A DNA stretch of 62,969 bases, counting the filler, from Collodictyon triciliatum (Eukaryota), in the NCBI GenBank assembly GCA_043381765.1. It is 4 parts of 4 records of this genome, joined end to end, with 100 filler letters (N's around TTAATTAATTAA, not from the genome) between each part and the next. Parts side by side here need not be neighbours in the genome. Positions count along the whole stretch, not along the records: positions 13,894 to 32,488 come from JBHJMP010001360.1; 3 more parts are not named here. One strand, given 5' to 3'. The position numbers and the translations under genes are program-made. Below, one piece after another: positions 14,195 through 22,838 of this stretch (positions are counted from its first letter, which is position 1; each line of letters starts with the position of its first letter). The notes below the pieces were generated by a model. The model was not told the DNA's origin and made no database searches. It worked only from the letters and a program-made list of their open reading frames with translations.

Positions 14195-17100
14195 TTGGAC
14201 CCAGACTTGGAGGGAAAATATAACACAGACCTTCTTCAAGAAAATTGGAATGGGGAATTACATTCACGTATAATTTTACGTTTTCTTAGATTTTCAGTCA
14301 AAAATACAGAAAAGTCTCACGTGCCCTTTCACTGTATATTTTTTTTTCGGTTTTCCTTTCACTTTATTTTTTATGATTGAGAAGAGCTTGATCCTTTCAC
14401 TGCATATTTACAATATTTTTTTTTAATTTGCTGACACTCAACCATACGTGGCATCTTTTATTGAAAGCGATACATCTTACGCCTAACAAATGATGTGATA
14501 TTTTCGATCCATTTTAGTTACTGTAAAGTACATATGTATTTATAGAGTCGAATCCCAGTCTTATACGAGCCTTATACAAAGCCTATGGACGACGCTACTT
14601 TTTCACATGTTTATTCTATGGCTTTCAAATGTTTTTCAAGGTTGTACAGCCCCTCCTCATCGCAAGTTTACTGTTTGCAATTGAAAATCCTGATAAAGTG
14701 GTATGTGCTTGCATATATTTTTCCTTTATAGTCACCTTTAAACAAAACTGACGTCTTACATGTCGTTCGATTAATATCTTGTCTCAAAATGTGTTTATAA
14801 AAAATACATTTATTTTGTCGCACGTGACCATCACATATAAATATTTGCTTGTGAGGAAACATCGTACTGGGATAAATTTTGTAGGGGTTGGGTGTAGCTT
14901 TCTTGATTGCAATTTTAATGGGGTTATGTGCGTTCATAACGGCTATTTTCTTGCCAAACTACTACTTCAGAAGTAATAGGTGGGCAACTATTTTTCCTTA
15001 GGAATTTTACATGCGTCATAATAGAAAGATACAGTGCTGACTGCCTCCATTTCTTTCAAATAGAGTCGGGGCGCAAATAAGACTTGCCATTACTGGTCTT
15101 ATCAATAGGAAAGTTCTGCGCATATCCAGTGAGAATATGATGTCTTTTACCACAGGAAAGGTAATTCATTAATTTTTTGTAAGGACAAAATAAGGATTTC
15201 TATTGCAAAGTAGAATCAATTTTAATCTGGATCATATTAATTCAATACTTAAAAAATAAAACGGCAAAAGGAGTGAACATGGAATTATAGAACTCCCCCA
15301 ACGATGTTCTAAAAAAATGGTTAACTACACAGATTATCAACATGATATCCAGTGATACTCAACGTTTTGACCAAGGGGCGATATTCTTACCATTTGTTTT
15401 CTTTTCACCCATCGAATGCCTCCTTGTCTTGGTCATTCTTTGGAATTGGGTATCCCACAATTTACTAACATAGTCATATATCCTCGCTACACTTTGAATC
15501 GAATAAAGGAAAAAAAAACATAGTCATATATATGTAGTCACTGGGCCTGAAACGATCTAGAAAACCCATGCCTCGACATTTTCATTCGAAATAGAATGGT
15601 TGATCATTGTTTTAATTATTTGACAGATCGGGGTTTCATCACTCGTTGGATTTTCTTTCTTGATGGTTTTGATGCGATTACTCGGATTCTTGGGAAATTT
15701 TTTTGCCTCCTATCGGCATAAGACAGCTGCTGTAACTGATAAACGAGTTCGCATTATGAGCGAGGTTTTCATCGCCATTAAAAAATTCATAAAAAGATAC
15801 ATCATATTTCAAGTATGGATTCTAAGTTTCTACTTTTTTTTTTTTTTTACTGACAAGATTATCTCTGGAATGAGAGCCGTGAAAATGTATGGATGGGAAG
15901 ACCCATTTAAGAGCCAGATAGAAGATACAAGAGACAATGGTATACAATCACAAAATTATGTTTTTTAAACTGAAAAATTTGCATAAAGTAATTTTTAACG
16001 AAATATTCATTTTACCTTACACCATATTCTCTTATTATCCCTATTTTTTTTTTTTTGGATATTCAATTCCTTTACTGAAATATACAAAATTTAGAATTGA
16101 AATTCATTTCGAAGACGATGATTGCGCAAGCTTTAAATTTGATTCTTTACTTTCTGTTGCCACCTTTGACATCTTTATTCACCTTTGCTGTGTACATGTC
16201 ATTGGGAAACAGTTTGACATGTAAGTATTATCCCATCAGAGCAAAACCTCCAATACTAATGTCGAGGGGGATTTTATTCAATTCTTATACCATGCGATTC
16301 AAGTTATCCCTAAATAACTTTTTGTTAATCTGCTTCATATAAGTATCGAAAGTCTTTGTTGCTATGTCCTGCTACAACATTTTGGGGTCTACTGTTGGGT
16401 ATTTCTTCTCAAGAGGCATTCAATCGATGTCAGAAATGAAGTAAAAATTATCAGTCATATCCATTAATTTAACGAATAATTTTATTAAACATATATCCAA
16501 ACCCATAACCTCGCTACACTTTGAATCGAATAAAGGAAAAAACATATATCCAAACCATTTTCTACTGCAAACTGCCTTCAAAATCCTCGTTTAAATACTT
16601 TGAAAATATATATTCCCTTATATGTTTTTATCTAGAGTGGCTGTCGTACGTTTCGAATCATTCCTACTAGCTGATGAAAAAAGTCGCCCGAAATTTGATA
16701 GAAATTCTGGAACATTCCAACCACAAATAGACATTTCAGATGCGGCCTTCTCTTGGTCTAGTTTATCACAGGGTCATGCGATTCTCAAGGCTTGTAATCA
16801 ACATAGTTTTTTTTTACAACTTAGCTTTCTATACTTATGAGATTATGCACCATTCGTTGTTGATTAATGAATACTGATTTCCAAATAAAAGGGTATTACT
16901 GTGTCTGTAAAATCCAGAGGATTAATAGCTATAGCCGGCCCGGTAGGTTGCGGTAAATCAACTTTGATAGCATCAATTCTCAACGAAACATACCTATGCT
17001 CTGGGTATGTGGTATCCAAAAATGCTCCCAGATTTGCATACTATACCCTGCTCTATTTCATTCATTATTACTATTACTATTACTATTACTATTACTATTA

Positions 17101-20100: not shown

Positions 20101-22838
20101 ACTTTCGATTATTTCGATCACTACAAAATTATCTGCAAACGAAAGCTTATTACAAGGAATTGAATACATTATGTATTTTTTTAGTCTACATGGCCATCAA
20201 TCGTTGGTTAACCATCCGCCTTGACTCTTGTGTTGCCATCGGTAAATCACTATTAAAAATCTTAGTTTGCACTTTGTTTCTTAGTATAGTAAAAATATGT
20301 TAATTTATTTATGTAACAAGTCATTTTGTTTGTATCGACCTTCTGTGTCGTCTTTCGAGACAACATGAATCCAGCCTTTGTTGGGTTGATGCTTGTGTAC
20401 TCGATGCAAATAGCTGTTTCCCTACAATGGTTTGTAAATCAATATGTACAACGCACTTTGAATATGTTAAATTGGGCATCGTATTCTTAAAAACATTGTT
20501 CCACATAATATCAATATAAATCATCGTTTTTCTAGGGCTACCAGACTAAGTACAGAAATAGAAAACCAAATGACAAGTTTCCAAAGGGTAAATATGCAGC
20601 ATGCGTCATATTTTATATTTAAATAGGTTGTTCGGATGGTTTTTCATTTGTACTAAAAAACAATTCGGTGGCCAATAAATTATGATAGATTCTTGCATAC
20701 AACAGCTTAGGATGCGAGCCAACTGTGAACAGAGAGATTGTATCACCCCCAGAGCAATGGCCAACCAATGGCAGCTTTTATTATTTTGCTCATAGTTTTT
20801 TTTTTTTGAAACTCAAGACAATCAATTGAAAAACCAATATAATATATCCCATTTAAAATATGTTAGATTTACAGACATATTTCGCCTTATATACTAGGCC
20901 TTTTTTTTTTTTTTTTGATTTAAAATGAAGAAAATACGATGATTTCTTACAGGGGACGTGAGGGTGGAGGATTTCTGCATGCAGTACCCAGGAACTCCAA
21001 AGCCCGTGTTAAAATCGATATCTTTCAGCGTAAAAGGGGGTCATAAGGTGACTATTTGATAATGATTTTTGAATAATCCAGGTATTGCAGCGATGAACTT
21101 TTCTCCTAGTTCTCAAAAAAAAATGCTTTTAAATCTTGCTTTATCTTGTACATTATTTTTGAATCTTGGTAACGCGCTCACAATTCGTTAGGTTGGCATC
21201 GTCGGTCGAACCGGAGCTGGGAAAGTAGTGTCTCAAATTTTTGAAAGTGTGCTAATAAGCATGCAATTATATGAAAAAAACAACCAAATAAGAATGCGAT
21301 AGTAATTATAAGTTACAATTTTTTTTAAAAGTCTTCGGTAATAACGGCACTCTTTCGACTACTGGAACCAAGGACTAGTGAATCTCAAATATTTATTGAC
21401 GGTATCAACATTATGCAAATTCAGCTATCAAAATTAAGATCTGTCATAGCAACAATTCCTCAAGACCCGGTATTCAAATGTTTTACTAAACACAAACACA
21501 AACACAAACACAAACACAAACACAAACACAAACACAAACACAAACCAAAAACAAAAACACAAACCAAAAAAACAAACGAGCGATGTCTAAGCTTTAATTT
21601 TTCTCTCTTCAATCACGGACGTAAGATTTTATTCAGTGGTACGGTCAGGAGCAATTTGGATCCATTCTGCAAATATTCTGACTTTGAGATATGGAGAGCA
21701 CTAGAATCAGTCCAGCTGCGGTCAATCGTAGCTTCCAGGCATACTTTTCAGATGACTTTTTTCCTAACACCAAAGAAATTTTAGATGCACATGTAACAAA
21801 AATAACGTGCTTTTCTTTGCATATTAAATGCATGTCTTTCTAGTCCTGATAAACTCGAATCTATCATCGCCGAATATGGAGCAAACTGGAGCGTAGGACA
21901 GCGCCAGTTAATATGCTTTGCTAGGTGATTAGCAAATTATCAATAATAAATGGAATTAAATACGCCAGCATGCATTTATCTCGATTTTAATAAGCAAATG
22001 GTGAACCAAACATCAGGGCTCTGTTGAGGAAAAACAAAATAGTTGTTCTGGATGAAGCAACTGCGAATGTGGATTATGATACAGACTGCCTTATCCAGGC
22101 ATACTATTTAAATTTATTTCAGTTCTACATGAGAGCCATGGATATACCAAATGCGTGACTAATCAGATATATTTTCTTATGGGGGGGTTTTTTTTTTCAT
22201 TTTTTTCATTTTTTTCATTTTTTTCATTTTTTTTTTTTTTTTTTTTTTTTTTTTTTTTGCAGAAAACTATCAGGGAGAACTTTTCAGATTCAACGATGCT
22301 AATTGTTGGTAAGATTTGGTGAATGGAAGGCAACCGACGATGATTTTTTTTCTTCAAGATTTGTAATGTCCACTTCCAATCCCACACATGTGAATATATA
22401 TGAACTCCTGACATGGGTTATTATCCTCTTCATCCAGCCCATAGATTGAGCACCATAATCGATTGTGACAAAGTCCTTGTTCTTGACGATGGGAGGGTGG
22501 TATGTTCATAAAAATATTACCAAAGAATAACCATACATCCATTGGAAGAATGATAAAATGAACGAAAGAAAAGAAAAAAATGTTTGCAAAAAAGCATGGT
22601 GTAAAAAAAATAATTGTTGGCAGGTTGAGTACGACCATCCCTACTTGCTACTTGAGCATCCTGGTTCAGCATTCCGAAAAATGGTTGAGAAATCAGGCGC
22701 ACAAGAGAAGCATCTCTACGCCGCTGGTACAGTTCATATGATTGCGCTGTCTGTTCCTCTTGCGTGTCTGACTCCCCAATTGTATCACTATTTGCAGCAA
22801 AGGAAAGCTACAAGGACAAGATTGGTTTGGTGGAATAG
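14195..22838 (+). CDS. ABCC: ABCC/MRP (ABCC4-like) full-size ABC transporter, 5' truncated, 38 exons reconstructed
   Basis: TMD1 ([35 protein letters not shown]), NBD1 ([33 protein letters not shown]), TMD2 ([24 protein letters not shown]), NBD2 ([32 protein letters not shown]); stop TAG 22836-22838. Confidence 0.96.
15467..15531 (+). mobile_element. 35-bp LINE 3'-end stub with 15-bp target-site duplication in ABCC intron
   Basis: AACATAGTCATATAT (15467-15481) + CCTCGCTACACTTTGAATCGAATAAAGG-A tail + AACATAGTCATATAT (15517-15531). Confidence 0.88.
16487..16556 (+). mobile_element. 36-bp LINE 3'-end stub with 17-bp target-site duplication in ABCC intron
   Basis: AAACATATATCCAAACC (16487-16503) + CATAACCTCGCTACACTTTGAATCGAATAAAGGAAA + AAACATATATCCAAACC (16540-16556). 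Confidence 0.88.
17066..17178. repeat. (TACTAT)n intronic microsatellite
   Basis: Direct hexamer array inside ABCC intron after NBD1 Walker A exon. Confidence 0.9.

Follow-up and report, generated by a model that had tools for sequence, protein, structure and literature searches.

Five GC-AG introns, probably genuine, in an intron-dense ABCC4-like gene of Collodictyon triciliatum

The gene coding for an ABCC4/MRP4-like ABC transporter was located on the plus strand, at positions 14195 to 22866 of a 62,969-nucleotide stretch of DNA from the collodictyonid Collodictyon triciliatum (assembly GCA_043381765.1; four parts joined end to end, called the window below, with all positions counted along it). 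Its visible coding span comprises 37 exons and 36 complete introns, with 31 GT-AG introns and five GC-AG introns in the curated model. The five sites are, in the reading that we favour, probably U2-type GC-AG introns of a functional and very intron-dense gene, which an ordinary spliceosome would remove. The initial annotation had set the GC donors at 16790, 19813, 20771, 21739 and 22099 and had considered them to be demanded by frame and conserved ABCC motifs; coordinates and hexamers proved exact, and spliced alignment with three guide proteins selects the same five sites.

The GC-AG introns are numbers 10, 23, 28, 32 and 34 of the 36, all on the plus strand. Intron 10 (16790 to 16891, 102 nucleotides (nt), phase 0) is bounded by AAG/GCTTGT and AAAAG/GG, intron 23 (19813 to 19959, 147 nt, phase 2) by AAG/GCAAAC and GTATAG/TC, and intron 28 (20771 to 20952, 182 nt, phase 1) by ATG/GCAGCT and CTTACAG/GG. 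Introns 32 (21739 to 21843, 105 nt, phase 2) and 34 (22099 to 22262, 164 nt, phase 0) share the donor CAG/GCATAC and end in TTTCTAG/TC and TTTGCAG/AA, respectively. All were obtained with the three guides, with the exception of intron 32, obtained with two of the three. The alignments were built with a purpose-written spliced protein-to-genome aligner, with intron states in all three phases and GC donors allowed at a penalty of 4. P0001, P0004 and P0005 served as guides; the identity of each to the final ABCC model is about 37%. The total scores with the three guides, 1408, 1560 and 1491, fell to 1320, 1478 and 1405, respectively (drops of 88, 82 and 86), when only GT donors were permitted. 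Masking of the single C led to a score loss of 6-16 at 16790, 20-24 at 19813, 10-14 at 20771, 0-12 at 21739 and 21-22 at 22099, the zero loss coming from one guide. P0004 prefers a GT at 21721 over the GC at 21739. With all five GC introns the frame is kept open and the alignment to the guides is gap-free. Opening the search to every donor dinucleotide brought up no additional non-GT donor common to the guides.

We then considered each junction with its possible GT alternatives and with solved ABC transporter structures. Neither 16790 nor 19813 has a GT donor in a usable frame. At 16790 the only phase-0 GT of the upstream exon lies right where that exon begins; since a stop codon two codons before GITVSV fixes the acceptor and no phase-0 GT is usable, the GC donor is forced. 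At 19813 the GT-only alternatives run through stop codons, and the solved ABCC4 chain 8swn_A reads TR then SPV, exactly where the next exon gives SPV; the open reading frame (ORF) containing this downstream exon itself matched no solved structure. Across the junction at 21739 the residue numbering is unbroken in human ABCC4 (8bjf_A; 1161 and 1163 on either side of the junction codon, 1162), as it is in bovine MRP1 (5uj9_A; 1334, 1335, 1336). The in-frame GT at 21721 to 21722 (plus strand, GCG/GTCAAT), which the initial annotation had named as the alternative to check, would delete 6 residues and break this continuity; it was chosen only with P0004, and its score on the local donor matrix is -2.36 compared to +3.80 for the GC at 21739.

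The junction at 20771 is the least secure of the five. An in-frame GT at 20795 would insert 8 residues, in a loop, and in the comparison with solved structures the upstream exon was unmatched, the downstream exon matching only the starts of generic nucleotide-binding domains (NBDs). At 22099, a GT at 22122 joined to an acceptor at 22273 would replace the conserved KTIR, for which the guides have ETIR, QTLR and LTLR; the solved structures gave two uninformative matches at an E-value threshold that was too strict, and the 15-residue exon had no ABC match. On the local matrix the alternative GT donors of the junctions at 21739, 20771 and 22099 score -2.36, -0.01 and -3.54, compared to 2.2-3.8 for the matching GC sites.

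The same donors were sought with a homology-free parser, based on codon usage and splice matrices and trained only on the four other curated genes of the window, which code for a PAK/STE20-like kinase (PAK), homogentisate 1,2-dioxygenase (HGD), a PPIL4-like protein and a USP12/46-like deubiquitinase (USP). It found four of the five GC donors (16790, 19813, 20771 and 22099) together with one false site at 21580, and predicted zero GC donors in the other four genes. In leave-one-gene-out runs with a GC penalty of 3.5, exact recovery reached 36 of 64 introns, namely 16/36 for ABCC, 7/10 for PAK, 5/5 for HGD, 7/7 for PPIL4 and 1/6 for USP. By position, frame and fit to the homologues, the five GC donors look real.

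The gene that carries them was delimited by tblastn with three ABCC4-like proteins, themselves found via one exon, which lays it at about 14.2-22.8 kb on the plus strand, split into many exons of 10-70 codons each. The curated coding sequence runs for 1227 codons without a stop from 14195, its stop codon ending at 22866, and about 1165 residues of the model can be aligned to the three ABCC4-like guides, which carry PF00664 and PF00005. It exhibits the order TMD-NBD-TMD-NBD (TMD, transmembrane domain) with ABCC-type conserved blocks, in the ABCC4-like short form, and the exons in TMD2 and NBD2 match solved ABCC4, MRP1 and ABCC2 chains; the weakly conserved linker was curated by eye. Because 1227 codons are free of stops, a decaying pseudogene is argued against, and the gene looks functional. 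Of the protein searches for a close orthologue, one gave at best 59% identity over half an exon and another no match, and a metagenome scan returned only relatives that are 26-35% identical (L001 and L002).

At the 5' end, an AG acceptor at 14193 to 14194 (plus strand) precedes the start of the ORF at 14195. As this acceptor implies at least one upstream intron, the 37 introns counted in the initial annotation are reasonable: 36 are complete, and the 37th, visible by its acceptor, is plausible. Its donor and the 5' exon or exons were not found beside the run of N at 13794-13893, and the N-terminal part of the model, about 40 residues, is what was not found. Upstream of 14193 there is no ABCC-like ORF but A-rich low complexity, followed by the N run and, on the minus strand, by an exon for a RING-H2 finger of HRD1/synoviolin type (13158-13661), which also runs into low complexity and the N run. 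The sequence may be broken or masked at 13794-13893, where both the 5' ABCC exon or exons and the upstream RING-H2 exons are missing.

Some features of the ABCC introns stand apart from the GC donors. Introns 5 and 9 have in common a 38-base stretch (15478-15515 and 16505-16542), 97% identical and not of low complexity, possibly a small repeated element. Intron 5 (15450-15626) opens with GTATCC, a U12-like donor core, and has no CCTTRAY branch box; it is probably of U2 type. ORF scans pass straight through 21470-21625, as they do through 32915-32983 on the minus strand, and homology alone reveals both stretches.

The donor sites of the window were then compared. The 59 curated GT donors have a weak consensus, about G/GTRWNT, with G at -1 in 43/59 (73%), A at +3 in 33/59 (56%), A or T at +4 in 76%, G at +5 in 25/59 (42%) and T at +6 in 34/59 (58%). 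Scored with a matrix derived from GT donors alone, the GC donors at 16790, 19813, 20771, 21739 and 22099 reach 5.07, 3.77, 2.20, 3.80 and 3.14, respectively, which corresponds to the 51st-100th percentile of the leave-one-out GT scores (n=5). Relative to the weak consensus of this genome, the five GC sites are good ones. Their scores rest mainly on an exon-side (A/C)AG: all five have G at -1 and four of the five have AG, the exon part scoring 1.9-2.9 compared to a GT mean of 1.2, and the part from +3 to +9 scoring 0.3-2.2 compared to 1.2. With n=5 this excess on the exon side falls short of significance (P=0.057 for AG and 0.21 for G at -1). The initial annotation had described a poor intron-side match to GCAAGT with an exon-side G, mostly AG, common to all five sites, and this description is correct.

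The GC introns have ordinary lengths, 102-182 nt, compared with a median of 139 nt for the GT introns of the window, and the strength of their acceptors is unremarkable. None of the five has an RTATCC donor or a CCTTRAY branch box, and a U12-type identity was rejected. An introner family was rejected as well: in an all-against-all blastn of the 64 curated introns, the GC introns gave only microsatellite or poly-T matches, and each matches only itself in the whole window. Microsatellites of ATT/TAT type (about 100 nt, 74-100% identity) are common to introns of three genes, at 11970-12444 in the kinase, 17005-17249 in ABCC and 25159-25406 in PPIL4.

For the rate of GC-AG introns, the four other conserved genes served as comparison. 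The HGD gene (1426 to 3730, minus strand) has 5 introns and no GC donor by spliced alignment with 4 guides, the same 5 introns being obtained with or without GC allowed; its product shares 82.9% identity with a protein that EukProt labels Diphylleia rotans, 68.8% with that of Rigifila ramosa and 62-67% with two animal proteins, which points to a collodictyonid-like organism (Diphyllatea, CRuMs) that is probably distinct from D. rotans. The PAK/STE20-like kinase, with a PBD/CRIB domain (10219 to 12790, plus strand), has 10 junctions and no GC donor, as placed by junction enumeration with the Pfam PBD and Pkinase coordinates; a rival GC donor at 11964 was dropped for 11970 by the continuity of the Pfam profile. 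In the gene for the PPIL4-like cyclophilin-RRM protein (23960 to 26234, minus strand), spliced alignment with 5 guides gave 7 well-supported introns, none with a GC donor. The N-terminal part of the USP12/46-like deubiquitinase (32753 to 34456, minus strand) has 6 junctions by enumeration, again without GC donors, and alignment with solved USP46 fixes the junction at 32983. For some of the kinase and USP junctions, conservation within the family was an additional guide. The USP12/46-like gene can be traced no further than the block ending in QEAQKR, and across an N run up to the next gene (32489-32753) the C-terminal half of its catalytic domain was not seen.

GC-AG introns make up about 1% of introns in ordinary eukaryotes. 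In the ABCC gene they represent 5/36 (14%), and in the window 5/64 (exact 95% interval 2.6-17.3%). At a rate of 1.3%, the probability of at least 5/36 would be 1e-4, a post hoc value as the gene was flagged because of these sites, and that of at least 5/64 would be 1.5e-3. Because the ABCC gene was flagged for this very feature, its neighbours give the less biased estimate, which is an upper bound only. Taking these values together, the GC-AG rate of the lineage is probably raised, and we consider it fairly probable, on an informal weighing, that the genome-wide share is at least 3%.

Of the 84 introns predicted by an ab initio parse of 12 further regions, 7 had GC donors, favoured over a GT-only parse by 0-8 bits; with these margins and an exact recovery of 36/64 the parse is too noisy and was rejected as an estimate of the rate. 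The best two of these candidates, at 51075 (minus strand, CAG/GCAATA) and 6474 (minus strand, TAG/GCATAC), have GT alternatives close by and no homology to decide between them; the latter has the same hexamer, GCATAC, as two of the ABCC GC donors. A very large gene at 53177-62875 (plus strand), with exons of up to 538 codons and a REJ domain (PF02010, E=2e-19, 59187-59903), codes for a polycystin-1/REJ-like receptor; it was rejected as a comparison gene, junction enumeration without homology being too ambiguous to count. Another gene, at 30790-31878 (minus strand), has a WWE domain (Pfam E=1.5e-14) and, by eye, a BRCT-like N-terminal exon. The window is AT-rich, with about 30-44% G+C in 2-kb bins, and full of microsatellites. 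Its N runs at 13794-13893, 32489-32588 and 51887-51986 each consist of 44 N, 12 bases and 44 N within a microsatellite or homopolymer, and two longer ones are found at 41865-42182 and 42531-43148.

Several observations weigh against genuine GC-AG introns at an above-average rate. For three of the five sites an in-frame GT is available as an alternative (21721, 20795 and 22122), rejected only by homologues of about 37% identity. In weakly conserved stretches the aligner made two further GC picks that were not reproduced, at 18722 with P0004 and at 17024 with P0005, the latter being wrong (GG/GTATGT at 17005 joins gap-free). The +5 G of well-compensated GC donors is present in only one of the five. 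The lean of the GC introns towards the 3' part of the ABCC gene is only a trend (rank-sum P=0.06). The four other conserved genes have 0/28 GC introns (exact 95% interval 0-12.3%), and the difference between 5/36 and 0/28 is borderline (Fisher one-sided P=0.049), which leaves a choice between a special gene and a modest lineage rate. Finally, splicing at the five introns is a prediction from genomic sequence and homology.

The in-frame GT sites could also mean that at least two of the five GC donors are artefacts of the gene model, with nearby GT donors in use at the price of small indels, or with micro-exons. We regard this as improbable. The preference of P0004 for 21721, the low identity of the guides, the spurious GC picks elsewhere and the solved structures, uninformative at 20771 and 22099, all speak for it. 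On the other side, 16790 and 19813 have no workable GT option, the GT alternatives score far below the GC sites on the local matrix, the residue numbers of the solved chains run on without a break only if the GC at 21739 is the donor, and the parser that uses no homology also selects four of the five. Less probable by far is that the C at +2 comes from errors of assembly or amplification, or that the gene is a decaying copy with mutated donors: it would take five independent T-to-C errors or donor-killing mutations at +2 in a sequence that keeps 1227 codons without a stop or frameshift, and apart from the N runs and the apparent break near the ABCC 5' end, nothing positive points to it.

The explanation proposed in the initial annotation was a relaxed or modified recognition of the 5' splice site. 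In its full form, collodictyonid spliceosomes would take C at +2 almost like T and read the exon side more, with 5-15% of GC-AG introns despite an AT-rich genome, which we hold to be rather unlikely. Its premises stand in that the GC donors look real, the GT consensus is weak and the exon side is strong. The 5/64 of the curated introns, with its interval, agrees with it, as do degenerate GT donors, GC donors lacking the near-perfect GCAAGT of other species with an exon side stronger than average and, weakly, the 7 GC donors of the ab initio parse. However, the trends are not significant, compensation is known in ordinary spliceosomes, and at a rate of 14% the absence of GC donors from all 28 neighbouring introns would have a probability of 0.015 (0.86^28). 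Moreover, the other lineages very rich in GC-AG introns have very G+C-rich genomes, according to the accessible part of PMC3033335, unlike this window. A lineage-wide change of the recognition system is possible and is not needed to explain the five sites. A scan of the window with Rfam found no RNA family.

We also compared the five introns with known systems. In the accessible part of PMC3033335, GC-AG introns average 1.3% across 61 species, with outliers at 39.6% in Aureococcus anophagefferens, 22.2% in Micromonas pusilla and 7.7% in Chlorella sp.; the outlier genomes have 65-70% G+C, and the authors tie the excess to composition. The accessible part of PMC7072748 gives GT-AG shares of 98.3% in animals, 98.7% in fungi and 97.9% in plants. 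GC donors are described as intrinsically weaker and offset by stronger flanks, in humans as well as in lower organisms, in the portion of PMC3167603 consulted. The five introns resemble these ordinary U2-type GC-AG introns in their GC and AG ends, their ordinary lengths, the absence of U12 signals and, as a trend that is not significant, above-average flanks; they differ in being five in one ABCC gene, in an intron side that is not near GCAAGT (G at +5 in one of the five, T at +6 in two) and in a compensation that would be mainly exonic.

The closest known situation is that of Globodera rostochiensis and G. pallida, whose genomes have 36.7-38.1% G+C and 3.46-3.56% of non-canonical sites, mostly GC/AG, kept between the species and commoner toward the 3' part of genes (PMC4901422, accessible part). 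The window is likewise AT-rich and its GC-AG introns lean 3' in the ABCC gene; in Globodera, however, the rate is genome-wide and supported by RNA, whereas here it concerns 64 homology-inferred introns in one window of a deep-branching protist. With Aureococcus, Micromonas and Chlorella the likeness would be a share far above 1%, as in those lineages (accessible part of PMC3033335), and the difference lies in the AT-rich window and in five GC introns without family similarity. The GA-AG introns of Eurytemora affinis and Oikopleura dioica (PMC7072748, accessible part) are similar in that a base other than T at +2 is tolerated at the percent level next to a conserved exon-side AG, and differ in the base concerned; here no donor other than GT or GC was reproducible across guides. 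Aureococcus anophagefferens and Micromonas pusilla carry introner elements. No study of the nuclear splice sites of collodictyonids came up in a literature search, and in the accessible text of a 2026 preprint with draft genomes of two collodictyonid species the word 'intron' is absent; its supplementary tables may hold gene structures.

We come back to the reading of five genuine GC-AG introns spliced in the ordinary way. As the 5' splice site of this genome is degenerate (about G/GTRWNT), its recognition would lean little on any single intron position. A change of T to C at +2 would cost one base pair with U1, and C at +2 might be acceptable at sites that are otherwise better than average, chiefly in the exon-side (A/C)AG. 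An ordinary spliceosome could then remove the GC introns, and altered machinery would not be required. The presence of five in one gene may reflect a GC-AG rate that is probably a few times the usual 1%, in addition to chance, or to weaker selection in a long and probably weakly expressed gene, with a 3' lean as in Globodera. What goes beyond the positions, frames, homologue fit and local donor statistics reported above we infer, namely actual splicing, how high the rate is across the lineage and why the GC introns cluster in the ABCC gene.

The five sites are a further case of a known type, GC-AG, and it is the lineage that is unusual. If the excess is confined to the ABCC gene, it would amount to a curiosity, the clustering of introns of a rare but ordinary type. 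If it is genome-wide, gene finders restricted to GT donors would mis-model many genes of a little-studied supergroup, and the lineage would offer a natural test of the weight of the +2 base in an otherwise degenerate 5' splice site. The collodictyonids belong to CRuMs, which branch deeply near the base of Amorphea, and it is a tentative idea, which we doubt more than we believe, that GC donors account for about 5-15% of the introns of this group despite an AT-rich genome, and lack the intron-side compensation of the GCAAGT type known from other species. Should it be true, position +2 would be nearly free in the recognition of the collodictyonid 5' splice site, and these would be the first abundant GC-AG introns uncoupled from both high G+C and introner elements.

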